A stretch of 63,962 nucleotides of DNA, filler included, from Reclinomonas americana ATCC 50394 (lineage: Eukaryota), in assembly GCA_048213135.1 (NCBI GenBank). It is 21 parts of 21 records of this genome, joined end to end, with 100 filler letters (N's around TTAATTAATTAA, not from the genome) between each part and the next. Parts side by side here need not be neighbours in the genome. Positions count along the whole stretch, not along the records: positions 3,288 to 8,191 come from AFZH01018225.1; positions 8,292 to 10,026 come from AFZH01018226.1; positions 10,127 to 12,572 come from AFZH01018227.1; positions 12,673 to 16,473 come from AFZH01018228.1; positions 16,574 to 19,308 come from AFZH01018229.1; positions 19,409 to 21,120 come from AFZH01018230.1; positions 21,221 to 24,342 come from AFZH01018231.1; positions 24,443 to 32,244 come from AFZH01018232.1; 13 more parts are not named here. One strand, written 5' to 3'. Position 1 is the first letter of the stretch; the number at the start of each line of letters is the position of its first letter. The notes beneath the pieces were generated by a model that saw only the letters and a program-made list of their open reading frames with translations, was not told the DNA's origin and ran no database searches. Shown here piece by piece: positions 3,129 through 62,500 of the stretch. The position numbers and the translations under genes are program-made.

Positions 3129-3375
3129 CTCTCTAGTCTGTCTCTCTCTCTCTCTCGCTACTCTACTCTCTCTACTCTCTCTCGTACNNNNNNNNNNNNN
3201 NNNNNNNNNNNNNNNNNNNNNNNNNNNNNNNTTAATTAATTAANNNNNNNNNNNNNNNNNNNNNNNNNNNNNNNNNNNNNNNNNNNNTCGTCTCGTACAC
3301 GTACGTACTACGACGTACGTACGTTACGTTACGTTACGTTACGTTCGTTCGTTCGTTCGTTCGTTCGTTTCGTTC

Positions 3376-5607: not shown

Positions 5608-7183
5608 CCACGCACGAAGGGAACAAACATACCTGGAGAGAAACGACGTCAGGGCAACATCGCCCAGCTCCGCGCAAAACGTCATGCACCGCGAGTTATT
5701 GAGCGCCGCCGAACCCAAGGTCACGAAGCGACCGCGGTACCACACACGACTCGAGCCGCTCCCGGCCGCCGCCGAGGCACCACCGCCGCCGCCACAGCCG
5801 TCGCCGGTCATTGCAGAGGTCGGCTCGAGTCGTCGCGCCTTATTCAGCTCGTTGGTGACCATGTTCAGTCGCAACGACAACTCGGCGTTCTGGCGAGCGC
5901 ACAAACGGGGGGGTCAAGTGCTTGATAAAAGTAGGGGAGAGACCATTATGACGCACCTCTTTCTTGAGTCGGGTGTTCTCGCTGGTCAGCACCTGCAGCC
6001 GCTGCGCCGTCTCCGTCGTCACACTATTGTCCACGACCGCCAGGTGCGCGTCGAACAGCACGCGGATATCCTTGATCGCGGCACCTCGGCGGCACGTGGG
6101 ACATCGGCGATTGTCGCGCGCCTGCGACTGCAACCACTGCTCCACGCATCGCTTGCCGAACAGGTGGCCGCAGGGCAGGCACGAGAGGTGATGTGCACCA
6201 GTGCTGGTGCACGGCTCGTCGCAAATGATGCAGCGTGTCTGCCAGGAGAAGGGTTAGGCAGCAAGGGAAAAGGCGAGGGAGACGGAGAAGAAAACGGACG
6301 CAACCAATGTCGGTTCAGGTTTGCTGCGTTTTCTCGGTGGCGACTGCCGGTCGGACACGGAGGTGGTTTTTGTTGTTGTCATTGTTGAGCTTGTGGGAGA
6401 GGCGCTTCGCTCTCGGCGGCGAGAGGGTGGTGAAGGTGGTGGTGGCGGAAGGCGGGTGATGGATGGTGGCGGAAGAGGAGGGGGATGGGGGGCGCTGTTG
6501 ACAAGGGGGGAAGGTAATGAGGGGAAGGGAGGGTAGGGAGGGAGGGAAAGGAGGGAGGGAGGAGAAGGCAGCGAGAGAAAGAGAAAGAGAGAGAAAGAGA
6601 GAGAAGGCAACGAGAGAGAGTCAAACTGAGAGAGAAGGCGAGGAGGAGGGAGACAATAGAGATAGAGGGCGAGAGAGAGAAAGCGATAGACATGAGAAAA
6701 GGAGAATGCGCACAGCAAGGCAGTAAGAGCGGGAGATGGCTTCTGAATTGCATCACAAAACGTCACTTCTCTTTCCTCCTCCCCTTCTCTCTCCCCCTCA
6801 CACACTCACTACCTCTTTCGCACTCACCTCAGTTGCGCCGCAGGAACGGCGACAACCTCCACAGGTTCATCGACTTCCATCTCCCTCTCTTCCCCTTCAT
6901 CATCATCACCAGCATCATCGCCGACATCGACATCGACTTCATCATCATCCACAACAACAGTGACTGCATTCTCCACTCGCACCGCATCGTGATCACCACC
7001 ACCACCACCATCATCATCATCATCGTCGTCACCAAGAACAACAACATCAAGATCATCAGCATCCTCCACTTGGCCAGCGACATTGTCAAGCACGTCGTCA
7101 GCAACAACGACTTCCACCAACTCCAGCGCAGCTTGCTCTGCCATCTCGCCAGTGAGGTCTACCACATCGTGCGGCGACGACAT
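4352..7183 (-). CDS. RFWD3: RFWD3-like RING finger and WD40 E3 ubiquitin ligase (multi-exon)
   Basis: Acidic disordered N-terminus, RING (LPCGHLFGKRCVEQWL...CPTC...DIRVLF), coiled coil, then WD40 strands (ASVSFDKVLQIVDL, WSVAFCDDDANVVFAGLEQGQVRVFDLR). The C-terminus ends LITLSASQLFVYKWED. Confidence 0.8.
5541..5607. repeat. (CAG)n microsatellite inside an RFWD3 intron
   Basis: Pure AGC/CAG run between the minus-strand donor GTATGT (about 5632) and an acceptor near 5507. Confidence 0.85.
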
Positions 7184-7488
7184 TTGGCGACGAGATGAAA
7201 GTGAGAGGGGTTTCCTGCAAATTGTGCGCGAAATGGATCCATGGAGGTGCGAGCACAAAGTGTCGGCGGCACAGCTCGAGCTTATGGTTCGTAGGGATGA
7301 GCTCACTACTTCCGCCAAGGAATGTTGCATCAAGGTCGGAATGTAGAATGCGGATTCGGCATCGGTCGGAGCTTCGCCACGGCGCGCGTGCGCGCGATTG
7401 CCAGCCATCAAGCGACTCCCTATATATGCAGCTCATCATCGACTTCGGCTTTCACAAGTTCTGCGTGCTCGGCTTTCCGCACCACATT

Positions 7489-7510
7489 TTGGCGCCAATT
7501 TGCACCGTTT
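7489..7510. promoter_or_regulatory. Conserved upstream element TTGGCGCCAATTTGCACCGTTT (E2F-like palindromic core); second copy at 11876-11897
   Basis: An identical 22-mer lies upstream of both NHL paralogues in otherwise dissimilar flanks. Confidence 0.45.
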
Positions 7511-7545
7511 TCGTTTTCAAAGCATCTTCTATTGTAGCCGCCGAC

Positions 7546-10500
7546 ATGCGTGCCGCTATCAACCTCGCTCTCGTCGTTCTCTTTCTCATCCACTCGCTCG
7601 CTGCCACTGCAAGTTGCGTGCGTTTGTGTTTGTGTGTGTGCGGGCGTGTGTTTGTGTGTGTTGTGCACGCTCTTTCGCGCCTTGTGCACCTTGTGTGTAT
7701 TGCTCACACGCACGCACTCACACTCCTCTCCCAATCCACCTCTGCGCAGACGCACAGACAGTCACCACCGCCGTCGCCAACAGCATCACCGGCACCACCG
7801 GTACTCTAAATGCGTGGGTCAATCCCAACAATGTCGCCGGAGGCACAACCAACTCCTTTGAGTGGTCTCCATACAACGCCGCCATTGGTGTCTCCTCGGC
7901 CACTGTCTCCACCTTTGTGGGCACTGCAGGCACCTCGGGAACAACGGACGGTGTTGGCGCAAGTGCCTTGCTCTACGGGCCACTGGTTTGTACATATTGT
8001 GCAGTGTCCTTGTTGTTCCTGCTACTATCGTGTGCTTCGCCGACTCAGCGACTACGCTCTCAACAGGGGCTGGCTTTCGACGCAGCAGGCAACTTGTATG
8101 TTGGCGACTGCGGGTTTGTCACGCTTGGCTCTTCCTTGTCTGCAGTCTGTCGATTCGTCTCACTCTTTTACACGCAATGATGGCAGCAACTNNNNNNNNN
8201 NNNNNNNNNNNNNNNNNNNNNNNNNNNNNNNNNNNTTAATTAATTAANNNNNNNNNNNNNNNNNNNNNNNNNNNNNNNNNNNNNNNNNNNNAGAGAGAGA
8301 GAGAGAATCAGCGCAATGCATTCCTCTATTCTCATGTGTGCCATCTGTTTGTGTGCGTGAGCGCAGCCGACCGCGTGACCAATTCCATCCGCGCCATCAA
8401 CACGGTGGCGATGACGGTGACGACGGTGGCGGGTTCAACGAGTGGCGTCGCTGGATCCACGGATGCCACTGGTAAGTTTTTCATAATAGGAGGCCCAGTG
8501 TGACTGTTTGCATGCGTGCTGACCAATGTGCATCAGGAACGGCCGCTCGCTTCAGCACACCAGTGGGATTGGCATACGACACAGGAAACAATGTCATTTA
8601 TGTTGCCGATGTTGAGTATCCCCTCTACCACGGCGCGCACGCTGATCACATCGCTTCTTTATTCTGACGCACTGAACTCCACAGACTGGCAACAACATCG
8701 TGCGAAGCATCCGAGTGTCAGACTCGTCAGTAAGCACCATCGCTGGTGCGGCGGGCATGAGTGGCTCAGCCAACGGCAGTGCACTGACCGTCGCCCGCTT
8801 CGACTTGCCGCATTATGTTGTATTTGATACCTCGACCGCATCAGTGCTCATTGCCGATTTCAACACGCACACCGTCCGTCGCCTCTCGCTGGCGTCGCAA
8901 TCGGTGTCGGCCACACCCGCCACTGCCACTGGCTCCCTCGCCACTTCGATCACTGCCTCACTGACTGGGTTGGCGAGCAACTGGACATACTATTATCGCG
9001 CCGTTGGCGTCACCTCCGCACCCAGCACCATCAATGGCGCCACCGTGTCGTTCACCACCACCACCAATGTGGCTCCGACCGATATTAGCTGCTCGTCGAC
9101 GACGTATGTGTCGCCGTCGGTGGCGAATCAAGTCGTGTGTGCGCTGCAGACGACGGACGCGAATGCTGGCCAGTCGTTCACGTACTCGATTGTCGGTGGC
9201 GCAAACAGCGCGGTGTTTTCGATCAGCGGACAGTCGCTGGTGATTGTGGCGGCGGGGCAGGCGGGCAGCTCGCTGGCGGTGACAATTCGGTCGACCGATA
9301 ACGGATCGCCGCCGCTCTTCTTCGACAAGGCGTTCACCATTGCCACGGGTGAGGCACATGTTACCCTGCATGGTCTTGTGTGCTCTGTGTCTGTCTGTCC
9401 ATCTATCTCTCTTGCATCTCTCACGCACACACACGCGCGCATGTAGCGCCGTTTGCTTCACCATGTTGTCTCTCTGCTGCCCACCTTTCTCTGTTGCGTG
9501 TGTCTCTCTTTTTCTCATTCTCATGCTTTCCCGTCTTGCGGGTTGATTCATTCTCTTGCCCCTTCCTCATCTCTCATTTCTCTTCTGTGCAACATTGTGT
9601 CTACCCCTCGTTCTCCGTTGCCACTTTTCTTTTCTCTCCTTTGCTCGCTGGTTCTCTCATGCGTTATCCAGTTTTCTTCAAGATGTTGCCTCTTTCCTGT
9701 CCTCCTCCTTCTCCTCGGCCTCTTCCTTGTTCTTCTTCTCATTCTTTTTCTTCCTCTTCTTTTCTCCTCATTCCGCACTCCTCCTCCTCGTCCTCCTCCT
9801 CCGCCTCCTCTTCCCATGCTGATCATGATGCCCCACTTTTTCTATGTGCCACAGCCACCCAATCGCTGGCCACGCTCGCGGCCAGCAGTGTGACAACGTC
9901 GTCGGCGACATTGAATGCGGTGGTGGGCAACTCTGTGGCGGCCTCGACAATGACCAACTCGTTCGAGTGGGCGCCAACAACGGCTGCCTTCGGTGTGACG
10001 CCAGCCGTGTCGACATGGGTGGGCACNNNNNNNNNNNNNNNNNNNNNNNNNNNNNNNNNNNNNNNNNNNNTTAATTAATTAANNNNNNNNNNNNNNNNNN
10101 NNNNNNNNNNNNNNNNNNNNNNNNNNAGAGAGAGAGGGCAGAGGGAGAGGAAGAGAGAGGGCAGAGGGAGAGGAAGAGGAAGAGGAAGAGGAAGAGGAAG
10201 AGGAAGAGGGAGAGGAAGAAGAAGAGGAAGCGGGAGAGGGAGAGGGAGAGGGAGAGGTAGAGGAAGAGGGAGAGGAAGAGGGAGAGGAAGAGGGAGAGGA
10301 AGAGGGAGAGGAGAGTGAAAGGGAGAGCTGAACCTTTGTCTGTGTGAATGCGCAGGGACTGTTGGCCCGAGCGACATTCTGCTGTCGGGTGCGCAGACGT
10401 ACTCGAGTGCGACGGTGCCATTCACGGTGGGCACACTGAGTATGGTGGATCTCAACACGGGACAGACGCCAACATTCAGCATCGTTGGTGGCGTGCATGC

Positions 10501-11864
10501 GGCGCTGTTCAGTCTGGTTGGTGGCAATCAGCTGACGATCTCTGTGGCTCCGCCACTGAGTCGGCGACTGCAAGTGTTTGTGCAAGTGAGCGACGGGGCG
10601 CTGACGTACACCAAGCAGTTCATGGTTGTCTATGGTGCGTGGGTGGGGAAGGGAAGGGGAAGAGAGGAGAAGGGAAAGAGAGCGAAAGAGGAAGAGAGCG
10701 AAAGAGGAAGAGAGCGAAAGGGGAGAGCGAAACGAGGAAGTGAGGGGGAAGAGAGAGGGAAAGGGAAAGAGAGGGAAAGGGAGAAGAGAGGGAAAGGGGG
10801 AGGGGAATTTTGGGGATAGGCTACATGGCGTAGATAGCAAGGGAACAGGGAAAGAGCGGAGATCGGAGATGTGACTAGTGGAAAATAGCAATGGTAAAGA
10901 GACAAATCAATGTTCATTTAGTTTGCGGGTGGGTATTTAGTTCCAGCAAAAAGAAACATTGTTGTCTGTTGGCTGTTCTCTCTCTCACTCCCTCCCTCTC
11001 ACTCTGTCGAAGTGGCTCATTCTACGACAATGGAAGGTTTCCTTGTCTTTGCTTGCTGGGCACTTGCTGACGATGTCTTATCGCTTGTGCAGCATCGAAT
11101 ACAAGTTGTTCTTCGCTGCAGAACGGCGTCGTGGCTCGTTGCGTTGCTTGTCACGTCCGGTGTACATCATCGTCGGTCGTCTCACTCATTGCTGTACAAC
11201 CAGCCGCATTGGAGGTGTGCCAGTTCGAAGCAGTGGATCGACCAGGCGGTACAATCTTGGCGTCGCTCGTCACTGCTCGCAATGAGATCGGTTGCTGCGA
11301 ACTGTGCGATCTGTACTCACTGTGTCGGTCGTGGACATTCTTGGATGCTGCTGCGACGTCGAACTCTCTTGGAGTGAGCGTATGCACACTGAAGGCGCGT
11401 GATCGGAAGTGAGACAGGGATTGTGTGAATTTGAGAAGCTCACCTTCGTGGGGCATGCAGAGCACGGTGCCGGCAACTGCTGCGAATGCAGAGACCAGCA
11501 ATGTGTGTGGCTCCCACTTCTGCTTGGTGTCGGGACGCAAGACGAGTGCGGCTGCGTACGACAGCAGTGGGTTCCAGACGAGCACGGGTGAGTCCTCGCA
11601 GAGGCGAGAGATGAGAGAAAGAATCGCGACTAATGTGTGGGGCGCTTTCATGCAGATCGGCCTGGTGGCGATCTCACGTGGGCCATCAAGACGATGACCG
11701 GACCACAAGCATGCTCACTGTGGTGCTCCCAACTGACTGCCTGCGGCTCGTGGACATTCACTACGTCGACCAAGCAGTGTGTGCCGAAGAGCGGCGTGGT
11801 GGCCACGTCGACGATGACTGCGTGTGCTATGAGTGGCGACTGCACGTCGGGCGTGAAGATTTGA
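7546..11864 (+). CDS. Secreted multidomain protein, copy A: signal peptide, split FN3-like domain with NHL repeats, cadherin-like domains, PAN/apple domains (interrupted by gaps)
   Basis: Signal MRAAINLALVVLFLIHSLAATA; NHL blades (GLAFDAAGNLYVG, NVIYVAD|TGNNIVRSI); LTGLASNWTYYYRA; cadherin-like NVAPTDI...QTTDANAGQSFTYSIVGG; PAN-like DRPGGDL...CSLWCSQLTACGSWTF...CVPK. Confidence 0.8.
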
Positions 11865-11977
11865 AGAGTGAAAAATTGGCGCCAATTTGCACCGTTTCCT
11901 CAGATTTCTTTTGGGTGTGTTCATTCCGTATGGGCAAACGGCCTCTCTCCTCTCGCGTGCGCTCACAAGCTGCTGGC

Positions 11978-12672
11978 ATGCACTCTCTCGTCAGCCTCAC
12001 ACTCATCCTCCTCTTATTCGTTCACACACTCGTTGGCACTGCAAGTTGCGTGTGCGTGTGCGGCGCGCTTTTTCGCGCCTTGTGCACCTCCTGTGTATTG
12101 CTCACACGCACCCACGCACTTCTCTCACAATTCACCTCCGCACAGGCGCCCAGACGGTCACCACCGCCGTCGCCAACAACATCACCGGCACGTCCGCCAC
12201 TCTCAATGCATGGGTCAATCCCAACAATGTCGCCGGCGGCACCTCCAACTCCTTTGAGTGGTCCCCCTATGCTGCCACTGTGGGCGTCTCCTCTGCCACC
12301 GTCTCCACCTTTGTGGGCACCGCTGGCTCATGGGGAACTGCGGATGGTGTTGGCGCCAGCGCACAACTGAATGGACCTTTGGTGCGCATTGACGATTTTC
12401 CTTTCTGTGCGTGTAACGTGCTGGGCCTAATTCACTGCGCGACTGTGTACTGTCTGCAGGGTCTCACCTTTGACGCCATGGGCAACTTGTACGTGGGCGA
12501 ATACAAGTTTCGGCATGCACCCACTGTTGTTCACAGTCTGTCGATCCGACTCACTCTCTCGCACTCAATGATNNNNNNNNNNNNNNNNNNNNNNNNNNNN
12601 NNNNNNNNNNNNNNNNTTAATTAATTAANNNNNNNNNNNNNNNNNNNNNNNNNNNNNNNNNNNNNNNNNNNN

Positions 12673-12746
<74 letters not shown>

Positions 12747-24173: not shown

Positions 24174-26800
24174 TCATTCCACAAACGTCCGCAGAATGCG
24201 CAGCAACGAGCGCACGCCAAACAGATACCCGTCCTGATTCTGCTCCGCCGACGAGTCCTCCAGCTCCGACAGACGCGCCACATGCGCAAAGTCCACCACA
24301 CGCAGACGCACCGACAGAGGCGCGCCCACCACACCATCACCTNNNNNNNNNNNNNNNNNNNNNNNNNNNNNNNNNNNNNNNNNNNNTTAATTAATTAANN
24401 NNNNNNNNNNNNNNNNNNNNNNNNNNNNNNNNNNNNNNNNNNAAGGGGGGAAGGGGAAGGGGGGAGTGAGGGGAAAGGGGGAAGGGGGAAGGGTGAGTGA
24501 GGGAGAAGGGGGCAAGAGTGGAGAGGTGGAGGAGAGAGACAGGGCGAGGGATGAGAGGGAGAGTAAGAGGAAGAGGAGGGAGAGAGTGAGAAGCAAGAGA
24601 GAAGGGTGAGAATGGGAGAGGAAAGAGAGAAGGAGGACGAAGGAGAGGGAGCGGCAAGAAAGAGCGGGACATGCCAGGAAAGAGGAGAAAGGAAGAGAGA
24701 GAGAGAGACAGAGAGAAAGAGAGAAGATTACAAGAATGCAAGAGCTGACGGAGAAGATGCGTTGCGAGAAGGACGAAAATGGAAACACAACTCAGGAGGA
24801 ACGACAGATCTCGGGCACTGCAGGTGTGCGGAGGAACAGGAAATGACGAGGATATGAAGTAGAGCTGGTAGCGAGAAGAATAGGACTGAGAAAAGAGAGA
24901 AAAGAGATACAGAGACAGAGAGAAGACTGTGAGAGACAACGTACATGTCCAGAGCATAAAGGACACGAGAAGGAAGAGTAGCGCAGCGAGAGGGCAAGAG
25001 TACATGAATGCTGTCAGAGAAGAGATGACGGTGTACGGCACAGCAACGAGTGCAGAACAACCAAGTAGTCGAGAAGAGAGGACAAGACAAGGGCAGAGTT
25101 CGCTGTGAGCACTTTGCTGCTCGTCTCATGAGAGAGAAAAGAGAGACGCAGCGACATCTAACAGAGAAAAGGGCAGAAGAAGAAGAGAAAGAAAGGACGA
25201 AATGCAGCTTCATCGTATTCGTCTTATTCCACTCTTTCTCTTCTCCCTCACCCTCTCACAGATATCAAGGACAGAAGAAGGGAGAGAAATGACAATGCCG
25301 CTTCCACTCTTATCAGATTAATCCTGTCACCTTCTTCTTCTTCCTCCCTCCTTTTGTTCTCCCTCTCCAAGTCACGGAAATCAAAGGACAGAAGAAGGGA
25401 GCATGACGCTTCCACCATTGCCAGATAATTATGCCACCTTCTCTTCTCCCTCTCCTCTCCTATCCTTCCCCCTCTCACGGCTATCAAAGGACAGAGGAAG
25501 TGAGACCAAGGACAAAATGACTATCACCTTCTTCCTCTCCCTCTTTCTCCTTCTCCTTCCCCTTCTTTCCCTCCCTCTCCCTCTGCAACTCACACTTCCC
25601 CCCGGGCAACTTGGCCTTCAGCGCCGCACACTCGGCCGACGACGACGACACGAGATGCTCAAACGGCCGCTCCGCCGCAATCTCATGCGGCGACAGTGCC
25701 AGCATGCCCACGCCGCGGCGCACTCGCACAAACGCCACGTGACACTCGCGCAACTCGGCCGTCGACGACGGCGACTCGCTAATGGCCACCTCGCTGGCCC
25801 TGGAGGTGGCCGCTGCCAGATCGCAACTGAACGAGGTCGGCAGCGACGGTATCGCCGGTAGCAGCGCCGCCAGACCGATAAAACGCGCCAGAAACTCCTC
25901 CATGAGCGACGCAGCCTCGTCGGTCGGATCGTCGTACACGGGCTCCGTTTCCGACGGCGGTGACTCCTCCTCCTTGCCCTCCTCGTGCTCGTGCTCACCC
26001 TGGCGATGCTGCTGCTGCTGCTGCTGGTGATGGAGATGCTGTTCGTGGTAATGGCTGGTGCACGACAAGACGCCGACATAAAAGGCCAGCTCGCGTGCAT
26101 TGAGTCGCTTGAAAATCCACCCGCGCGGCACACTCTGCTTGATGGGCACATGACCGCCGGCCTGATGCGGATGAATGAGCACCGTCTCCGTCCACAGCTG
26201 CACGACCGGCTCGGCCAATCCCGCACTCCGCACACTCATCAACTGCGGCAACTCACTCGACTGATCCTCGTCCGAGTCTGCCTCCTCCTCGTCCTCGTCC
26301 TCTTCATGCTCGTCGTCCTCCTCCTCGTCATCATCAATGTCCTGCTCCGAGTCGACCTCGTCCAGCTTGCCCACCATGAGATCATCGTGACTGCTGTGCG
26401 CTGCTCCTCCTGCGGGTGTTGGCGGCTTGCGTCGACTAGCACGTCGCGGCAGAGGTGGTGTGCGATCTCCATGATTCCCGTCCTCGTCTGGCGGCTGGTC
26501 CTGTCCCGCCGAGGAGGCCGCAGCGCCGGCGGGGATGAAGGACGAGGCGGGCGCCGAGGACGACTCGACGTGGCGCAGACGGCGACGCTGCTGCTGCTGC
26601 TGCTTTCCGGGTGAGTCATCGGGGACACCAATGGCGTCGGCGGCAGCGGCCGAAGTCGCCTGCTGCTGTTGTTGTTGTTTTTGGAGTAATGTCGGTGAGG
26701 GGGGCGGGTATCGCAGTGAGGAGGAGGTGCGACTGGAGGAGCGAGTGGCGGCCGCGCTGGAGGCGGTGGAGGAGGATGGAGAGACACCCGTTGTGGTGGA
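24174..26800 (-). CDS. Inositol polyphosphate kinase (IP6K/IPMK superfamily); central catalytic exons missing in gap, start uncertain
   Basis: N-lobe motif HQAGGH...WIFKRLNARELAFY in the large exon. The last exon (24174-24342) reads LRVVDFAHV...QDGYLFGVRSLLRIL*, the family's IDFAH and DxGYLxGL motifs. Confidence 0.85.
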
Positions 26801-27204
26801 TTGATGGAGAGCAAAGGGCGAGAGGGGGAGAGAGATGCGCACAAGAGACACTACTGATGCGATGCGCGAAAGTGACAAGGAGGAGTGTGTGGAACGAAAC
26901 CCGCGCGCGCGCGCACCCTCTTGGCGAATTTGATGACAAGAAACACACACGCACACTCGCTGTGAGAAGGAGAGTGGTGGGAGAAAGAGAAAGTGAGAAG
27001 GCGTGTGCGAGAAAAGAGACACACTGTGCGTATGTGCGTTTGGTCAAAAAAAGTTGTACACTTCGGCTGACTGGAATGGATGGTGGAATCGAAATGGGTA
27101 AGGAAAAGGGTGTGAGATCGGCTGGTGCGCCTGGTGTGCATATGCGTGGTGTCGCTAGTGTCCACTCGCGCGATGAGGCGGTGGGCAAGTGCGGTGTTGT
27201 GTAT

Positions 27205-27690
27205 CAGGGAATGGCGGGAGAAGTGCACCTGCTCGCTTTGTCCGGGTCTGAGAAGGAGAAGGCTGTTGAGGTTTCGCTGATCCTGTGTATGTATCTACCT
27301 TGTCGCTCTCTCATTCCGCGCTGTGTGGACGATGACGAGTGAGCGCAGTGTTGTGTAACTGGAAGTGGCGGGAGAAGTGCTCGCTCTGTCCGGGTCTGGG
27401 AAGGAGAAGGCTGTTGAGGTTCTCTGCGTGCGAGCATGTGCCTGTCTCACTGCTCTCTCACTTTGCGCTGTGTGGATGCCGGCGAGTGAATCGCAGTGTT
27501 GTGTAACTGGAAGTGGCGGGAACGTGCTCGCTCTGTCCGGGTCTGGGAAGGGAAGCTGAGTGAGTGTTTCTCTGCAAGTGTACATGTGCCTGTCTCACTG
27601 CTCTCTCGTTTTGCGCTGTGTGGATGCCGGCGAGTGAATCGCAGTGTTGTGTAGCTGGAAGTGGCGGGAAGCGTGCTCGCTCTGTCCCTC
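27205..27690. repeat. Tandem repeat, about 3 copies of a roughly 150 bp unit, between the divergent kinase and Rab18 genes
   Basis: TGGCGGGA...GCTCGCT(C/T)TGTCC starts near 27212, 27366, 27514 and 27662, with GCGCTGTGTGGA...GCAGTGTTGTGTA in each unit. Confidence 0.85.
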
Positions 27691-27901
27691 TCATCCTCAA
27701 TCAACAAAACGTGCGTGAGTGAAGTGCGCCTCTCTCTTTCTGTGCGTGTGTGCGTGCTTGGGTCTCGTGTGTAGAGAGATCTTTCAGTGAACGAGCGCGC
27801 GTTTGAGAGACACGTGTCTTTGTGAGTGACATCGCGCGTCTGACGTTTTCTCACTCCCTTGTGTGCTGTTGTGTTGACAGGTTGTTTTGTGCTTGTTTTC
27901 C

Positions 27902-29150
27902 ATGAGCGACTACGATTACATTTTCAAGGTGAGCAGCGCGGGAGGGAGAGTGAGGGAGGGAGTGACAAGGGAAACAGCTATTTTTTCTCTCTTTCGCTGT
28001 CACGTGTCGGTGCTGACAAGGAAGGAACTGAGAGGGAAGGAAGAAGGGAAAGGGAGTGGAGGGGAGTTGATCACGACTCTTCTTGGTCTCATTCACACTC
28101 ATTTCACTCTAGTGCTCTGTGACGAATCACGCTCTCCCACACACACACGAGCACACGCGTTCTCCCTGGCTCCCTCTACTCTCTTCCCCCTCCTCTCTCT
28201 TTTGCACTGTCACAATCCGAGCAAAGATCGTGCTCCTCGTTTCTTTCCTCCCTCTCATCTCATCTCCTTTGTCAGTCTCAAGCACAACACAGATCGCACC
28301 CCCACAGACATCTCCCTGACTCTTGCTCCTCTCATCTCATCCCCGTTTTGCTGTCTCAAGCACAGCGCAGATCAGACGCACTCTGTGCGTGATGCCTCGT
28401 GTTTCCTTCTCCTCTCCTCCTGCTATCGCCTTTGCACTGTCTCAATCACAACACAGATCGCGCTCCCGCAGATATAAGCTCGCTTTCTCACCCTCTCATC
28501 ACTCTCCTCTTGTCTCTTCTCATCTCTCCTTTGCTCTGTCGTAAGCACAACGCGCATCACGCTCCTCCTGATGCAAGCACGTACCTCTCCCTCTTTTCCC
28601 TTTTTCCTGTTCTCACATCTCTCTTTTGCTGTACGAATCTCGCTCCCGCAGACGCAAGCACACACGCTCTCCCTGGCTCCCTCTACTCTGTTCCCCACCC
28701 GCTTCTCCTTTGCCCTATCGCAAACACAGCGCAGATCAGACGCACTCTGTCGTGTTTCCTCTCTTTCTCTCTCTCACTTTCTCTCGACGCACTGCTCATG
28801 GATACTATGCCGTTCTTTGTTTCGGTGCTTCTGTGCCCCCCCCCCCCCTCCCTCTCTCTTACTGCAGCAGCTCGCTGTACTTCTCTCCCTCCTTTTTCTC
28901 TCTCTCTCTCTCGCCGCTCCTCATTGTTTTTGTGCGTGCATAGATCCTGCTGGTGGGTGATGCGTCGGTCGGCAAGTCCTCGATTCTCCTGCGCTTCACC
29001 GACGACACATTCGATGAGGAAATCGGCAGCACAATTGGTAAGTGCTGGCGAGGGCGCAGGGGGAGAGCTAGAGTTAGTTATTCGGCAAGGAAGGAGTTTG
29101 AAAAGGATGCGAGCTGACAATGATCTCGCGGCTTAGGCGAAGTGGGGCGA

Positions 29151-29184
<34 letters not shown>

Positions 29185-31670: not shown

Positions 31671-31808
31671 GCATCAACCACGTGCGCGTGCACGTGTATG
31701 TATGTAGAAGGAAGTAAGAGCATGCTTGTTAGTGGAGGCAGAAAAGGGGCAGTGGAGGCGTGTACATTGAAATTGGTCTTGTCCTCTCTGGTGTCCTCTG
31801 TGATTGAA

Positions 31809-32106
31809 ATGCTTCTCCAAGTGCTCTCACACACTGGCACCTATCGCCTGGTGCTGCTGGAGGACCGTTCATCGACACATCGCTTCACTCCACTCCTGCT
31901 TCGTCGCATTGTGCAAGCGCATGAGTTGAGAGACAGAGAATGAGAGAGAAATGTGACTGTCTGTGCTCCTCCCTCACTCACGCGCACTCACAGGTCCACG
32001 TGTGTGGTGGCCATGGACTCGCCTCCATCGCATTATCCTCGCATGCTGAGGTGAGTGAGAGGGAGAGATAGGAGAGAGACAGAGGAAGGGAGGGAGGGAG
32101 GGAGGG

Positions 32107-32158
<52 letters not shown>

Positions 32159-32349
32159 GAGTAGGAGGAGAGGTAGGGTAGGACGGTAAGGTAACGGTAC
32201 CGGTACGGTTAGGGTAAGGGAAGGGTAGGGGGTAGGAGGAAAGGNNNNNNNNNNNNNNNNNNNNNNNNNNNNNNNNNNNNNNNNNNNNTTAATTAATTAA
32301 NNNNNNNNNNNNNNNNNNNNNNNNNNNNNNNNNNNNNNNNNNNNGAGAC

Positions 32350-32384
<35 letters not shown>

Positions 32385-33740
32385 AGGGAGAGTGAGAGTG
32401 AGCGATAGAGCCTGTGAGAGAGGGTGGAGAGAAGAGAGAATGAAGTTGTCAGAGTGCGCACGAGAGACTGAACAGGTTATGTCTCTCCCTCCTCTTTCCT
32501 CCTTTCCTCCTCTTTCTCTCCCCCCCTCTCTCTCTATCCTTTCTCTCTCCCTCCCTCTCTCCCTTCCTCTTTCTCACTCTCTCCTTGCTCTCTCTCCTTT
32601 CTCCATCACCTGTCGTCCTCGCCCTTCTCTCACTCCCCGCTTCTCCCTGCAGCCTCTCTCCCTTCGCTTCTCTCCCTTCCCCTTCTTCCGTCCTCCCTTC
32701 CTTCTCTTCTCTCCCGTCTCTCCCTCTCCTTTCTCCCTCACTTCACTTCTCTCCCCGCTTCTCCTCCTTTCCCCTCTCCTTCCTCCCTCCCCTCCTCTCA
32801 CCCGCCCCTTGTGCTTCCTGCACAACAGATCCCCACCCCACTTGTCCGTGATTGACGGCTTCTCGGACCCACTACACTGGAAGGGATCGAGCGGGGTGGA
32901 CTTGTCGTCGCAGGTGGGACTGGGGGAGCTGTGCGCGCAGATCGAGGCTACGGGGGCGCACTGTTGCGTTCAGGAGCAGGGAAGGTCTCCCTTTCTCGTT
33001 TTACTCACGTTCTTTGCTCGCCTCCAGGCGTCGTGCTGGACTCGCTCAACGCCCTCTTGCGACTCCACTCGTGGACACAAGTGCTTCGCTTCCTGCGACG
33101 AGTCACCGACAGTGCACGAGGTCTGTAGATTCTGTGCGGCGCACCTCCGTCTCTTCTCCTCCGCTCACGTGTCTATTCTTCGCAGATCCACTGGCGGTGA
33201 TCTGCATTGTGCACGTGGACCTGTTGCCGGGCGGCAGTGAGATTGACTTGGACGACTCGGAGGTGGTGGCAGAGGCGTCGCTCGCACGCGACTACAACGC
33301 GTTGCAGATGTATGCACGGGCGCGCATCAGTGTCGAACCGGTGGTGGCGCAGCCGTATGCTGCGGACATTCGCATTTTGGGTGAGTGGGGGGATGAAAGA
33401 GAGAGACAACTGCGACGGATATTATCGAGAGATTGAGGAAGGGAGGGAGTGACACGGAAACGAGACAGCAAGTCACGTGCATCCGCGAGACAAAGCGATA
33501 TGATCACTTTCCCCCTTTCCCCTCGGCTCACTTTCCCCTTCTCCTCACTGCGCACCAGGCGGCTTCATGTCCGTTCCCGTGTCCTCGCTGCACGGAGAGG
33601 CCGCCGAGATGTACCTGGCTGAGAAGCGAAACAAGCAGCGAGTGGTTATTGCCGGTCGTGCCGACGTCAAGTGCACGTGCAGGGCGCGACGCTCCAACGC
33701 CAAGCTGCAGACATCGGTGCGTGCCAATGCAGATCCATTC

Positions 33741-33783
<43 letters not shown>

Positions 33784-34086
33784 GTACGACGACGGACGGA
33801 CGTACGGTACGTACGACGACGAGAGAGAGACAGAGAGAGAGAGAGAGAGGAGGAGGAGAGAGAGAACGAGAGANNNNNNNNNNNNNNNNNNNNNNNNNNN
33901 NNNNNNNNNNNNNNNNNTTAATTAATTAANNNNNNNNNNNNNNNNNNNNNNNNNNNNNNNNNNNNNNNNNNNNACACACAACAACAACACCGACCGACCG
34001 ACCGACCGTACCGTACGTACGACCGACGACGTACGTACGACGTACGTACGTACGCGCGTCGACTACGTACTACGTACTACTACTCT

Positions 34087-34146
<60 letters not shown>

Positions 34147-34738
34147 CTTGCAGATCTGTTTACATGCTCGCACTCCTTCTCACCCGTTTTCTCTCTCGTT
34201 TCCCTGTCTCTCTCCCCCGTTCATGTGTTCCTCTCTCTGTACTCTCTGTCTCCCCCATCCCTTTCTTTCCTTCCCTTCTCTTCCCCCTTCCCCCTCATCG
34301 CTCTCTTCCTTTCCAGGAGGAATGGTTCGTGGCCACCGACGACGACGACTCACTCCTCCCGCTGCCCGTCGAGGACTACGACGCAGTGCGTCGACGCGCC
34401 GAGCAAGCCAACGTTGCGTCGCCGTACCCCTCCCTTTCTCTCCCCTTTACTCCCCCCCTGCTCACCCTTGGGTGCAGGCTACGGATCCCACCGAAGTCGC
34501 CTCCTTCAACTTGAAGTTGTCCGACGCGGAGCGCGAGGCCAAGGATGCTGTGCGGTTACCGTACACCAAGCAAGCGGCGACTGCTGCTGCTGCCGGCGAG
34601 CCGGCAGGACTGCCGACCACGGTGCAAATCAGGGGAGGCAACAGCAGCAGCGGCAGCGCAACTGCATCTGGCACGATTTTTGTGGACCACGACGAGATCT
34701 TTGACGACGACGACCCCGACTTTGATCTCGATCTCTGA
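31809..34738 (+). CDS. ELP5: Elongator complex subunit 5 (multi-exon, two gaps)
   Basis: IDGFSDPL.W and VVLDSL motifs; C-terminal signature ASFNLKLSDAEREAKDAVRLPY...IFVDHDEIFDDDDPDFDLDL*. Confidence 0.85.
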
Positions 34739-34825
34739 ATGAACGAGATAGTAAACGAATTTACTCGCTAATAACAAACAAACTTGCATGAAAACACGCG
34801 GGGCAGTCCCTCTCTCGCACTCTGT

Positions 34826-37154: not shown

Positions 37155-37185
<31 letters not shown>

Positions 37186-59500: not shown

Positions 59501-62500
59501 GCGGGGATGAGCAGCTGATTCGGCACCTGTACGTGCACAACGAAATGGTTCAGCGACTATCCCTCCTTCCCTCCTCCTTCTCCATGAGACCCACCAGCTC
59601 GCTCTGCGCCGCCTGCTTGACCACTTGCGGGTGTAGTAGTTGAAAGTTGACCGTCGTAAAGAGTTGCAGGCGCTCGGCCGACGTCAGCGAATCCTGGTGG
59701 AACGCCGCGTACTGGTGGAGCAGCTCAAAGATGGTCTCTTCGTGCACCTCCTCGTTGCGCTCCACGTCAACCAGTTGCACGCTGCAGGGCAGGCAAAGGG
59801 TGGTGAGAGGGGGAGGGGGAAAAGAGAGATGAGAAGGGGGGAAAGGAGAGAGAGTGAGAGAGACAGAGAGAGAGAGAGAGAGAGTGCGAGGAAGAGGGAG
59901 CACAGGAGAGAGGGAAAGATGTAGAATGAAGTATGTGAGGAAAGAGAGTGAGCAAACGGGGAGAGAAATGGGGAGCGAGAAAGATGGGAGAGAAATAGAG
60001 AGTGCGAGAAAGACGCAGGAAGAATATGGGAGGGAGAGACGGGTGGGGAAGGAGAGGGAGCGAAAGAAAGGGAGCGAAAGGGGGAACCCTAGAGATGAGA
60101 GTGAGATAATGGAAGGGGGAGATTGATGGAGGAAGGGAATGCGGTATAAGGGAGAGAGAGACAAGAAGGGAGAAAGAGATGAGTGAGAGAAAGGGGAGAG
60201 AGATAAGAGATGAGACAGAAATAGAGAGTACCAAATAGAGGGAGGGAGGGAGGGAGGAAAGAGAGTGAGCAACTGGAAGGTGAAGACAGAGTGAGATATA
60301 GATGGAGGAAGGGAACGCGGTATAAGGGAGAGAGAGACAAGAAGTGAGTGAGAGAAAGGGGGGAGAGAGTGAGCAAATGGAAGGGAGAGAGACGAGGGAG
60401 CGCAAGAGTCCGTCCCTCTCTCTCATATGTCTCTCTCTCACATCTCTTGCTCCCCCTTCCATTCCTTCACATATTCTTTTCTCCCTTCTCATCTCTCCAT
60501 CCCTTCGCCCATCCCTCCTTCTGTCTCTCACTCTCTGTTTCTCTCTCGTGAGATGAGAAGAGAGAAAGGAAGGGCGAGAGACGAGTAAGCAAGAGAGAGA
60601 ATCCAACGCAACATGACATCGACGGGCAACGCGTGAAACAGGTGCGTGTTTCGCTCGGAGCGCAGGCTCTCGATGCTGCCCTCCGACACTTGCAACATGG
60701 AGATGACGTCGTCGCGCAGTTGTGTGGCCTCGGTCAGGCACGCACAGTAAAGAAGAACAATCGCGTCGGAGGGTGGAAGTGGCATGTGTTGCGCTGCACC
60801 ACGGAGCAACNNNNNNNNNNNNNNNNNNNNNNNNNNNNNNNNNNNNNNNNNNNNTTAATTAATTAANNNNNNNNNNNNNNNNNNNNNNNNNNNNNNNNNN
60901 NNNNNNNNNNAAGAGGAGAACGAGACGAGCAAGAGGAGAACGAGATGAGCACAAGGAGAACGAGATGAGCAAGAGGAGAATGAGACGAGTAAGAGGAGAA
61001 CGAGACGAGCAAGTGGAGAACGGGACGAGCAAGAACAGAATGAGAAGGATGAGAAAGAATGAGACGGGCAAGACAGAATGTAGTGTGAACGAATGAGTCG
61101 CTGGCACTGTCCGTGAGAGTGAAGATGAAAATGGACTGATCTTGTGGTGTAAAGGGCAAGGCTCGCTAAATGATGCAGACATCTCTGCAAGCTGAAGAAT
61201 GAAACAATCGGAACGAGAAGGAAAGGAAGCGCGCAAAGAACACAAGATTACATCAACTGTTGAAACCACAAGAAGCTGACAAACCTCCGCCTGGAAAATC
61301 GCATTGTACACGGTCAGCTTTCGTGCCTTCAGATCCTCCACCAGTCGTTTCCGCAAATCAAATACGAGGCGTGGGCACTGGAGCAGTTGGGCGAGTACGA
61401 ACAGTGGGATCACTTCCAGACTCTGCAGGGAGAGAAAATGTCAGTAAACGGGTGGAATACAAACTACGATAGAGATGGCAGACAACGAGAACGAGGCTGT
61501 GCCTGGAATCTCTCTCCTCGTGACTATTCTTGGGTTTAGTTCTCTCAGATCCACTCTGGCTTCCCGCAAACTACACTCTCCATTTCTCTCCTATCACTTA
61601 TCAGCTCTATTCTGCCAGCTTCCGTCTCTCATGAGCTTAAACAATGGTGCCTTCTGTGAGTCTCTTCTCAGGCCCTTTCCCTCTAGTATCTGCTCCATTT
61701 GTGACTCCCTTCTTCTCTCTGTTCACTCTGCCTCGAGTGTGAGCAAGCTCACTCTCTACGAGAGACTATCTCGCGTACACACACGCGTACACACACATTC
61801 ACGGAGAATGGCAACAAAAGTGTGAATGTACGCGCACTTGCGTGCTCCTCTCTCGCTCACATCATCGCTGCACCCTCTCCCTTGTTCAAAGCTCTTTCCT
61901 CCTTCTCTGTCCCGTCTCTGCTCACTCATCTCTTTCCCATTCCCCCCCCTCACGCACCTCACACACGAGCCTCCCCGTGTACATGGTCATCAACAAGCGC
62001 GGCATCACATTGAACCGATCGCGCACATCCGACAAATCCACGCAAATCAAGTCTCGCTCGCGCTTGGCCACTGTCGCCGGCACAGACGACGACTGATTGG
62101 CAATGGAGGCCACGGCGGCCACTGCACCAGCACTGGCCGCCGCCAGCGTCGCGGCGCGTTCCCGTCGATCCAACTCCAACAGCGCCGCACGAATCCGATC
62201 GCTGTACATGCTGACAATCAGGCGGTGCGCCAGCACGTCCAGCTCCAGCCACGTGACGGCCGTGCCGACCGTGTAGTACGACGAGTCCTCTTCTATTGCG
62301 TCCGCTGCAAGCAACAAAATGTGAGGTGGGGGAAAAGGAGACGAGAGAGCAAGAGAGAGGGGCGGTGGAGACAGAACGATTGCTTGGTTCTGCGGGAGCG
62401 GGGGAGGCGCCGATGCGGGAGGGCGTGTGGCGTCCTGAGCGGCCGGAGGATGGTCGACCGCCGGAGGGTGTGCTGGGGGAGGCCGATACTGTGCATCACA

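Follow-up and report, generated by a model that had tools for sequence, protein, structure and literature searches.

The window analysed here is a 63,962-nucleotide (64-kb) stretch of the Reclinomonas americana ATCC 50394 genome, joined end to end from parts of 21 records. It carries genes for a DRG protein, Rab18, ELP5/Iki1, a RING/WD40 (RFWD3-like) protein and a TIG-domain protein, NHL-repeat genes, paralogous signal-peptide exons, a PAN-domain exon and its duplicate, and a gene whose WD40 region we take to match that of human HIRA. The results below describe this one window, with junctions deduced from DNA. Sites are named by the first nucleotide of the donor.

An original prediction had listed 27 sites as a second class of 5′ splice site beginning with GTT. 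We observed GTT at all 27 (27/27). Seventeen read GTTGCGT and three GTTGAGT (8611, 52570 and 24086). The remaining seven were looser: GTTGTGT at 13645, GTTGAGA at 31925, GTTGCGG at 44663, GTTTCGT at 46010, GTTCCGT at 53267, GTTACGC at 40549 and GTTGCGC at 57940. The base before the motif (−1) was G at exactly three sites, 6304, 51132 and 52677, the same three that had been named.

Abundance and strand of the GTTGCGT heptamer

GTTGCGT occurred 26 times on the two strands of the window, whereas base composition predicts 8.1 copies. Words differing from it by one base had 2–12 copies each, except GGTGCGT (20), GTGGCGT (18) and GTTGTGT (20). T was specific at +3: GTAGCGT had 2 copies and GTCGCGT had 5. 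As the sub-words of GTTGCGT are enriched too, the excess was smaller against a maximal-order Markov expectation (z = 2.6, rank 153 of 14916).

We used a donor-blind gene finder, which has no donor model in its prediction. Exact GTTG[AC]GT made up 9 of its 80 predicted donors, where ~0.4 were expected, given that 34 of all 7305 GT sites carry the motif (P = 6e-11). This finder is noisy; on DRG it recovered 6 of 10 true donors and added 2 false ones, and the Rab18 gene was absent from its predictions. By strand, 25 of the 34 motif copies were coding, 5 antisense and 4 outside predicted genes (P = 3e-4); control words were near 1:1. In an exon-end test, 10 of 34 motif copies passed compared to 0 of 34 reverse complements. 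G+6/T+7 was present in 11 of 25 predicted GTT donors but in 36 of 469 background GTT sites (P = 3e-6), a check that the original prediction had named and that we ran within the window. All 11 of these donors had a base other than G at −1. Some 10 of the 34 probably do not act as donors, among them 41132, 36516 and 9493. Two pairs are duplicates (9493/14518 and 11138/18105), and paralogy makes 7613/12045, 11138/18105 and 8611/13645 non-independent.

Junctions in individual genes

The DRG gene was aligned to 32 DRG homologues with a spliced aligner that allowed any GT..AG intron. Three of its 10 donors were GTTG[AC]GT, following T, A and T; the other 7 were ordinary and all followed G. Intron 1 (58 nt) begins with GTTGAGT after T (24080..24086, minus strand) in 26 of 32 alignments. 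Homology support for this site was weak, as forbidding it cost just 2.9 score units, and nothing for 3 of 10 homologues; an in-frame alternative GT lies 9 nt downstream. Intron 9 (68 nt, phase 1) begins with GTTGCGT after A (21589..21595, minus strand) in 31 of 32 homologues, and intron 10 (73 nt) with GTTGCGT after T (21423..21429, minus strand) in 30 of 32. Forbidding these two donors cost 11.8 and 24.2 score units, respectively, and both were also donor-blind predictions. Neither 21595 nor 21429 was among the sites listed originally.

In HIRA, a GTTGCGT donor after A (50921..50927, plus strand; 66 nt, phase 2) was placed by reading frame and WD40 continuity by eye; the donor-blind finder kept the acceptor but chose an in-frame GT 15 nt upstream. 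The GTTGCGT donor after G at 51132..51138 (plus strand; 61 nt, phase 0) was also placed by eye. It has in-frame alternatives 3 nt upstream and 9 nt downstream, and the finder preferred an alternative. The finder itself predicted GTTGCGT after A at 52282..52288 (plus strand; 58 nt) and GTTCCGT after A at 53267..53273 (plus strand; 67 nt, phase 2). The exon after 53267 contains the start of the Pfam Hira domain. GTTGAGT after C (52570..52576, plus strand), where the finder took a GT 5 nt downstream, and GTTGCGT after G (52677..52683, plus strand) had no acceptor with a convincing frame. Just beyond the Hira domain, GTTGCGT after C (55661..55667, plus strand) may open a 648-nt intron; the exon upstream matches Hira positions 176-220, and a GA-rich repeat lies downstream of the site.

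The NHL-repeat genes contained GTTGAGT after T at 8611..8617 (plus strand; 74 nt, donor-blind prediction), where a diverged paralogue carries an intron at the identical codon. In this paralogue, GTTGTGT after T (13645..13651, plus strand) shares the position behind the Asp codon of the repeat, and the intron interior has diverged; the finder took a GT 7 nt downstream. GTTGCGT after T was predicted donor-blind at 15241..15247 (plus strand; 61 nt), and was placed by repeat spacing by eye at 15945..15951 (plus strand; ~70 nt), where the finder took 15980. Splicing at 15241, 15945, 8611 and 13645 retains the residue spacing of uninterrupted NHL repeats. At the ends of two paralogous signal-peptide exons, GTTGCGT after A was ambiguous (7613..7619 and 12045..12051, plus strand). 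Phase-1 solutions of 137 nt and 101 nt exist, the two sites align as paralogues, and a GT five bases downstream with another acceptor fits too. GTTGCGT after C precedes a PAN-domain exon at 11138..11144 (plus strand, coding; 66 nt, phase 1). This copy was absent from the donor-blind predictions and from the original list, and GTTGCGT after C at 18105..18111 (plus strand) is its near-identical, non-independent duplicate.

Among the other genes, ELP5/Iki1 has GTTGCGT after C at 34413..34419 (plus strand), with a 65-nt, phase 0 intron to CAG. Splicing there opens a 60-codon frame (coding score +19.5) and the exon matches Elong_Iki1 (E 7e-5). In the RING/WD40 gene, the 66-nt, phase 0 intron from GTTGCGT after G (6298..6304, minus strand) stops just ahead of the first Cys pair of the RING finger; the upstream exon had a poor coding score. 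The exons behind both 34413 and 6304 are supported by Pfam. In the TIG-domain gene, a donor-blind GTTGCGT after T (44022..44028, plus strand; 63 nt, phase 1) is flanked by coding scores of +39.5 and +25.7, and the next exon is TIG-like in appearance. Further donor-blind predictions were GTTGCGT after C at 44386..44392 (plus strand; 68 nt, phase 2; flanking scores +23.1 and +26.9), GTTGCGT after T at 32963..32969 (plus strand; 65 nt, phase 1; weak DUF7504 match downstream, E 0.015), GTTTCGT after C at 46010..46016 (plus strand; 57 nt) and GTTACGC after A at 40543..40549 (minus strand; 68 nt, phase 1).

GTTGCGT after C at 46311..46317 (plus strand; 77 nt, phase 1) gives a short intron to CAG in a good frame; here the finder joined that acceptor to an in-frame GT 9 nt downstream. 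GTTGCGG after A (44663..44669, plus strand) is a possible donor behind a strongly coding frame (+30.1), with a purine-rich GGGAGAA-type repeat behind it and an uncertain donor-blind intron of 1126 nt. Plausible introns start at GTTGCGT after C (41433..41439, minus strand; 114 nt, phase 2), absent from the donor-blind predictions, and at GTTGCGC after T (57934..57940, minus strand; 73 nt), for which the finder paired the acceptor with an in-frame GT 24 nt upstream. For GTTGCGT after T at 60606..60612 (minus strand) the exon end is plausible and the acceptor uncertain: the donor-blind intron is 831 nt, and short-intron solutions fail. GTTGAGA at 31925..31931 (plus strand), which had been listed as a donor, is not supported as one. 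It lies ~260 nt beyond the Rab18 stop codon, and coding support is absent on both sides.

Besides the unsupported 31925, about seven sites are ambiguous or without a convincing intron. DRG homology, the gene finder and the strand-bias test agree that a second donor class exists at the DNA level. Its share of all donors appears to be roughly between one fifth and one quarter, close to the earlier estimate of roughly a quarter.

The exon-final base and the ordinary donor class

In the donor-blind set, exact motif donors followed G in 0 cases and another base in 9. GTRMG donors followed G in 19 cases and another base in 1 (P = 1e-6, Fisher). This dependence of donor class on the −1 base, the other check named originally, was observed within the window only. 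Ordinary donors placed by homology in DRG and Rab18 followed G in 12 of 12 cases, two of the Rab18 donors being supported by 1/6 and 2/6 homologues. Ordinary donors after other bases occur, as had been reported: both are perfect GTGAGT after T, at 12825..12830 (plus strand) in an NHL repeat, where it shares its place in the repeat with the GTTGCGT introns, and at 14977..14982 (plus strand).

The new class had been tied to the absence of G at −1. Motif donors do mostly follow other bases, but the motif itself is indifferent: G preceded 3 of 25 coding-strand copies compared to a background of 20.6% (P = 0.45, on 3 of 24). The motif does not avoid exon-final G; the ordinary class is the one that requires it. 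Branch motifs resembling CTCAC or CTGAC and YAG ends were seen by eye in both donor classes.

Register, U1 pairing and alternative explanations

The claim that the motif is simply the ordinary donor with one extra T was not supported. Position +5 was C in 21 of 25 coding-strand copies, whereas +4 of ordinary donors was A or C at 13:6 (P = 3e-4, Fisher, using 21 C : 3 A at likely motif donors). The proposed one-base shift fared better, as T+3 is specific and G+6/T+7 replace G+5/T+6, but an unchanged U1 is a poor partner for it. In a nearest-neighbour model that leaves out pseudouridines and U1 proteins, duplexes with the standard U1 5′ end averaged −1.5 kcal/mol for motif donors (n = 17), −2.9 for random GT sites and −7.8 for ordinary donors (n = 15). 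A hypothetical U1 end with G5 and C6 gave −7.2 for the motif and −7.5 for ordinary donors. There were no snRNA genes within the 64-kb window.

We propose a second donor class, GTTG[C>A]GT, whose members are the genuine 5′ ends of ordinary, U2-type GT-AG introns; that they are real donors is very probable. The ordinary class (GTGAGT, GTGCGT, GTAAGT and degenerate forms) would work almost solely behind an exon-final G. The second would work behind any base, and would therefore be used by most exons that lack a final G. The motif would be read in a register displaced by one nucleotide from the cleavage site, which would stay before GU. In that register intron G+1 would stand in for exon G−1, U+3 for U+2, and G+6/U+7 for G+5/U+6. 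We lean towards such a displaced register on some U1. Because G+4/C+5 are strongly preferred and standard U1 pairs poorly, the most likely partner would be a U1 with positions 5-6 adapted to G+4/C+5, for example G at 5 and C at 6, perhaps a variant working alongside standard U1. This last step is tentative, and we give the whole explanation, with second donor class, displaced register and adapted U1, a probability of roughly 0.4. A sole G5 U1 does not account for the A+4 preference of ordinary donors. Poor pairing alone is also no proof of a variant U1, since Thecamonas and Mamiellales, with C at +4, retain a standard U1 according to the available portion of Roy & Bowser (bioRxiv 10.1101/2022.06.08.495308).

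A single U1 of the standard type could instead read the same donor class in a register shifted by +1, with U1C or Luc7 offsetting the weak helix; we regard this as possible but unlikely. T+3 and G+6/T+7 are as it needs, the GTTGAGT sites 8611 and 24086 give the only long continuous helices with standard U1 (−4.7 and −5.5 kcal/mol), and the partial text of Tan et al. 2016 (PMC4856993) documents this register in human cells. Species with C at +4 retain a standard U1, as noted above. But standard U1 pairs no better with the dominant GUUGCGU than with random GT, so a shift on unchanged U1 explains the motif poorly. The best-pairing forms were rare or absent (GTTGAGT 8 and GTTAAGT 0, compared to GTTGCGT 26), and the preference for C+5 runs counter to that of ordinary donors for A+4. 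Variant U1 or U6, which the original prediction had also raised, fits better.

It is improbable that the donors are read in the ordinary register while a single U, at +2 or +3, bulges from the U1 and U6 helices. This arrangement would keep G+1 and U+2 in their usual slots, and some dozens of human examples have been described (68 predicted, 54 curated; Roca et al. 2012, via the available part of Tan et al. 2016, PMC4856993). The bulge would not demand a T, yet enrichment at +3 was limited to T. Exon-final G would pair and should be favoured, but was observed in only 3 of 25 copies, and pairing with standard U1 would still be poor.

It is slightly less probable still that the motif only marks exon ends, with cleavage at another nearby GT, or one base off with non-GT/AG ends. 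Many sites have a second GT at +6/+7. In-frame alternatives occur, several of them not separable by coding score, and the donor-blind finder favoured another GT at 50921, 51132, 46311, 57940, 13645, 15945 and 52570. The next exon starts with G at 50921 and 21429, where a one-base slide would give an identical mRNA, but such a slide requires both non-GT and non-AG ends. Using the +6 GT costs 11.8 units in DRG intron 9. Conservation of the motif would then fall in the exon, in all three phases, and the alternative GTs follow non-G without a consensus, breaking an otherwise strict rule. That the heptamer is no splice signal, its excess coming from paralogous copies, codon usage or chance, is largely refuted: duplicated and non-donor copies and the modest Markov z speak for it, but the 25:5 strand bias, the exon-end test, the homology-placed junctions and the lack of shared intron sequence past the donor speak against it.

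Human shifted-register donors have the consensus /GUUAAGU. In the available parts of PMC4856993 and PMC9311317, which describe these atypical sites with shifted U1 base-pairing (Roca & Krainer 2009), they resemble the present class in the extra U after GU, U1 pairs displaced by one, cleavage before GU and G+1 in the G−1 slot. There they are rare exceptions that fit standard U1; here the class, with G+4, C+5 and poor standard U1 pairing, is the main solution for exons without a final G. Human bulge +2/+3 sites, as far as PMC4856993 describes them, also carry one extra nucleotide directly after GU. A bulge would not need T at +3 and should gain from −1 G, and neither expectation agrees with the present class.

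Entamoeba donors are of the GUUUGU type. The accessible text of Roy & Bowser (bioRxiv 10.1101/2022.06.08.495308) reports co-evolved U1 5′ ends, AACAAAC in Entamoeba and ACGUAC in Mastigamoeba balamuthi, and explains the donors by altered bases at U1 positions 5-6. As described there, these consensuses likewise depart from what a standard U1 would pair with, T at +3 or C at +4 being among the changes, but one transformed consensus serves all introns; here two classes occur in the same genes, sorted by the last base of the exon.

In ordinary donors, exon positions −1 and −2 and intron positions +4 to +6 compensate for one another (the seesaw effect). The perfect GTGAGT donors at 12825 and 14977 follow this pattern, in which donors without −1 G need a stronger intronic match. 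Unlike the seesaw, most donors lacking −1 G here use a different 7-mer, one base longer, instead of a better match in the same register. The class resembles U12-type and introner-like introns in its unusually long, highly conserved donor, which does not depend on the last exon base. It differs from U12-type introns in that the donor does not match the consensus RTATCCTT and the branch region resembles that of ordinary introns by eye. Unlike introner-like mobile introns, the motif introns have no sequence in common past the donor (mean local score 7.5 compared to 6.9 shuffled).

If the GTTGCGT class is what it appears to be, it would be a natural system in which to test how the spliceosome chooses the register in which it reads a donor.

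Motif donors at predicted junctions placed by homology, repeats and domains

Proteins were aligned to the genome with a purpose-written aligner that permitted any GT..AG intron and had no further splice-site model. Spliced alignment with DRG homologues gave 10 introns in the DRG gene (minus strand, 24113 to 21282), whose closest homologue is 68% identical. Three of the DRG donors read GTTG[AC]GT, mostly GTTGCGT in the window as a whole (hereafter the motif). These are 24086, 21595 and 21429, preceded by T, A and T and chosen in 26, 31 and 30 of 32 homologue alignments, respectively. All three lie on the minus strand, and the last two had been missing from the 27 GTT donors of the original prediction. 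The remaining seven DRG donors were ordinary (GTGAGT, GTGCGT, GTAAGT and degenerate forms), with G before 7/7. Forbidding 24086, 21595 and 21429 cost 2.9, 11.8 and 24.2 score units, respectively (mean, 10 homologues), and forbidding three ordinary DRG donors cost 22-47 units. Homology appears to fix 24086 only weakly, because its cost is low and splicing at an in-frame site pair 9 nt downstream changes the protein very little. The Rab18-like gene had five ordinary donors, all after G (6/6 homologues for three, 2/6 for one and 1/6 for one). When the DRG alignment was run against metagenome contigs, we obtained 80 loci, nearly all uninterrupted and cDNA-like or intron-less, with no close relative among them.

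Removal of the three DRG motif introns as U2-type GT-AG introns restored frame and protein alignment (26-31 of 32 alignments), and short frame-restoring introns with a CAG end were found at 17 sites or more. Predicted donor/acceptor pairs include 21429/21357, 21595/21528, 44022/44085, 44386/44454, 15241/15302 and 34413/34478. Motif introns with a resolved acceptor (e.g., 21429, 44022 and 52282) were 57-77 nt long, with one of 114 nt, and had CAG ends, and in a set of sixteen the span was 58-77 nt, again apart from the one of 114 nt; ordinary introns in DRG and Rab18 ranged from 61 to 1023 nt. By eye, possible branch-site motifs of the YTNAY type (CTCAC/CTGAC/TTGAC-like) appear upstream of the acceptor in both intron classes. 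The shortness of motif introns may reflect intron-definition constraints or, in part, easier ascertainment of short introns; the latter is possible because some sites run into GA repeats without a resolved acceptor (44663, 55661, 60612).

Repeats and domains gave further junctions. Four NHL-repeat introns are preceded by the same Asp codon: two with GTTGCGT after T (15241 and 15945), one at 8611 and one at 13645, the diverged paralogue of 8611. Excising them to the next CAG/AAG produced the residue spacing of intron-less NHL repeats. An ordinary GTGAGT after T stands at 12825, at an NHL-repeat place used elsewhere by motif introns, and a second ordinary GTGAGT after T at 14977. In the HIRA-like gene, reading by eye shows the WD40 frame kept by a 66-nt, phase-2 intron at 50921 and a 61-nt intron at 51132. 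The HIRA junctions rest on reading frames, Pfam matches and the expected likeness to human HIRA, which they would fit residue by residue. A homologue search among representatives with the Hira-domain exon returned three weak matches and no usable HIRA; one with the WD40 read-through ORF returned only four bacterial-type WD40 proteins, and a PDB search for HIRA only generic WD40 chains. A 65-nt intron at 34413 leads into an exon matching Elong_Iki1, and a 66-nt intron at 6304 into the first Cys pair of a RING finger. TIG-domain clusters were the sole atlas outcome.

The window has 54% G+C and comprises ~21 short contigs of one eukaryote, with an identical linker (44 N, TTAATTAATTAA, 44 N) between contigs in 20 copies (3188-3287 and 19 other places). 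Contig breaks fall mostly within GA/CT microsatellites. The HIRA-like gene spans three contigs, running through the linkers at 51884-51983 and 54468-54567; local contig order and orientation are therefore real there. GA/CT dinucleotide and GGGAGA-type repeats are extremely abundant (CTCTCTC count 664, both strands) and occupy many introns and spacers, giving sub-threshold palindromic miRNA-like Rfam hits (e.g., 33752-33849, both strands). Plus-strand genes at 43754-46850, 8345-10024, 12756-16467, 10364-12498 and 16581-19278 form a cluster of secreted-looking multi-domain genes with TIG, NHL, PAN and cadherin-like repeats, whose first exons encode signal peptides. No Pfam match was obtained for two long ORFs, one of 519 codons at 25487-27043 (-) and one of 554 codons at 57604-59265 (-).

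Enrichment of the motif among donors

All 27 sites of the original prediction do start with GTT (GTTGCGT 17, GTTGAGT 3, looser variants 7). We counted 26 copies of GTTGCGT on both strands of the window, where base composition predicts 8.1. Words one base away from it occurred 2-12 times each, except GGTGCGT (20), which is the ordinary donor plus its exon G, GTGGCGT (18) and GTTGTGT (20), which arises from GT repeats; the third-position variants had 2 (A), 5 (C) and 18 (G) occurrences. The excess over a maximal-order Markov expectation was modest (z = 2.6), because 6-mers within GTTGCGT are enriched as well. GTTAAGT had 0 occurrences in the window. By reading, the 34 motif copies divide into ~24 plausible donors and ~10 implausible ones (e.g., 41132, 36516 and 9493/14518). 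Several copies are non-independent, because near-identical NHL/cadherin-like and PAN stretches lie on different contigs. The near-identical pairs are 9403-9700 with 14428-14720 and 11048-11340 with 18015-18305; recent duplication of NHL/cadherin-like and PAN-domain genes, or haplotypes of these left uncollapsed, may account for them.

A gene finder without a donor model (codon usage, GT, YAG and a mild length prior only; iterative training) predicted 80 introns in the window. This donor-blind finder is noisy, recovering 6/10 true DRG donors with 2 false ones and missing Rab18 entirely. The exact motif stood at 9/80 of its donors versus 34/7305 GT sites overall (P = 6e-11), and four predicted donors were near variants (40549, 44663, 46010 and 53267). 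At 50921, 51132, 46311 and 57940 it picked an in-frame GT 9-24 nt off with the same acceptor (50906, 51141, 46320 and 57964, respectively), and codon scores do not discriminate the motif from the alternative GT at these four sites. Among predicted GTT donors, G+6T+7 was present in 11/25 versus 36/469 background GTT sites (P = 3e-6). Within predicted genes, 25 motif copies were in sense and 5 in antisense orientation, and the other 4 of the 34 lay outside genes (P = 3e-4), with control words split about evenly between strands; three of the five antisense copies (7613, 34413 and 55661) result from overlapping gene spans wrongly resolved. Two cruder tests agree weakly with motif donors. A first gene finder, which allowed any AG acceptor and was very noisy, predicted 68 introns with GTTGCGT as the commonest heptamer (n = 5). 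In a low-power pass/fail test of exon ends, 10/34 motif copies, 29/218 ordinary motifs and 627/6807 of all GT sites passed, as did 4/17 of one control, GTGT[AC]GT.

Dependence on the last exon base

We observed that donor-blind donors differ with the last exon base (-1). After G (n = 39) they carried G+3 in 24, A+4 in 17, G+5 in 30 and T+6 in 20; after non-G (n = 41) they carried T+3 in 20, G+4 in 19, C+5 in 17, G+6 in 18 and T+7 in 17. In the same set, exact motif donors occurred 0 times after G and 9 times after non-G, compared to 19 and 1 for GTRMG (Fisher, P = 1e-6). A mixed set of aligner results and by-eye reading gave 17 ordinary donors after G (DRG 7, Rab18 5, and 50671, 51266, 51446, 15491 and 15696) and 2 after non-G, and motif donors once after G and 8 times after non-G, the latter count including GTTGTGT at 13645 (P = 1e-4).

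The original prediction had the second class tracking exons that lack a final G. The half of this concerning ordinary donors stood, as these need G (19 versus 1). Aversion of the motif to G did not: G preceded 3/25 coding-strand copies compared to 20.6% of gene-span GT sites (P = 0.45, computed on 3/24), and among the 27 predicted sites exactly 6304, 51132 and 52677 follow G, as had been noted. Ordinary donors thus need G-1 and the motif does not. Counting the -1 base over ordinary donor words alone (G in 27/66) tells nothing, as repeats are full of GTGAGT-like words. Where the exon has another final base than G, the motif is used or, more rarely, a perfect GTGAGT. A donor G|GTTCGTGT (also GTTCGTCT and GTTCGAGT) recurs at 15696 (+) and 46498 (+), and also at 16145 and 5308 (-). 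Donors of this type, most of which follow G, combine T+3 with the ordinary-register G+5/T+6, so membership of the second class is not given by T+3 alone.

U1 pairing and two possible splice-site codes

Duplex energies were computed with RNAduplex (nearest-neighbour), using the U1 5' end as printed in PMC4856993 and ignoring pseudouridines and proteins. With this standard U1 end, the 17 motif donors tested averaged -1.5 kcal/mol, compared to -7.8 for the 15 ordinary ones and -2.9 at 400 GT sites drawn at random. The 15 GTTGCGT sites among them ranged from +0.5 to -4.4 kcal/mol, not better than random GT, and only 8611 and 24086 (GTTGAGT) of the 17 form a long continuous U1 helix. A hypothetical U1 end with G at position 5 and C at position 6 gave -7.2 for motif and -7.5 for ordinary donors. 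The motif had originally been described as an ordinary donor plus one T. Base preferences spoke against this, with C+5 over A in likely motif donors (21:3) versus A+4 over C in ordinary ones (13:6; Fisher, P = 3e-4).

At motif donors, U1 would pair one base out of step, with cleavage staying before GU. In this displaced register +3 must be T because it would fill the U+2 slot, G/T would fall at +6/+7 because pairing is displaced by one base, and the exon G would be dispensable because G+1 would take the G-1 slot. Tan et al. 2016 (PMC4856993) and the review PMC9311317 describe rare human donors with a shifted register and with a bulge +2/+3 register. As in the human-type shifted register, the motif has U+3 with G/U moved from +5/+6 to +6/+7; pairing of standard U1 did not improve on displacement by one base in the RNAduplex test. 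Our preferred but tentative explanation is that the displaced register works on an adapted U1, probably a variant one, given the C+5 bias, the poor standard-U1 energies, the fit of the G5/C6 end and the precedent of Entamoeba and Mastigamoeba, where U1 5' ends are altered to match atypical donors, according to Roy & Bowser (bioRxiv 10.1101/2022.06.08.495308). The main rival, a shift on standard U1, draws on the same preprint, in which Thecamonas and Mamiellales retain standard U1 despite C at +4; the energies above weigh on the other side. A free bulge was rejected, as it predicts neither T at +3 nor indifference to exon G.

Two other intron types were set aside. Introner-like mobile introns would share sequence, and the 16 motif introns have none in common beyond the donor (120 pairs; mean local score 7.5 versus 6.9 shuffled, maximum 17 versus 16), so they are not mobile-intron copies. 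U12-type donors have the consensus /RTATCCTT with a matching branch site; RTATCCTT was present at 0/27 sites, and the 3' regions are like those of ordinary introns.

Taken furthest, the displaced register on a variant U1 would mean that the same genes carry two 5' splice-site codes side by side, each read by its own U1 snRNA, with the last base of the exon deciding the code; we give this a probability of roughly 0.25. Standard U1 would serve G|GTRAGT-type donors, and a variant U1 with G/C at positions 5-6 would bind one nucleotide out of register. No Rfam family reached the gathering threshold in the window and no match at E<=1 was snRNA-like, the E<=1 matches being only microsatellite-driven, sub-threshold miRNA or snoRNA-like ones.

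Most of what is known on how U1 binding relates to the exact cleavage position comes from engineered minigenes and from exceptions that are rare in humans. In the literature searched we saw no such class described, and matches to the donor strings themselves were primers and unrelated papers only. What we rate as new, from one 64-kb sample, is that noncanonical U1 registers appear to be raised from a rarity to a routine, rule-governed class. Gene finders trained on one donor matrix will annotate this genome wrongly; even the donor-blind model often slid to neighbouring in-frame GTs. If the displaced register is true, at least a fifth of introns would be one base out of step. Natural test cases would then number in the hundreds to thousands, with the final exon base as the simple rule that sorts them, and exons unable to end in G would have a new evolutionary route. 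A matching variant U1, if one exists, would clearly exemplify co-evolution of snRNA and introns in which two codes coexist. Two such codes would be a natural, genome-wide separation of the U1 binding register from the cleavage site.
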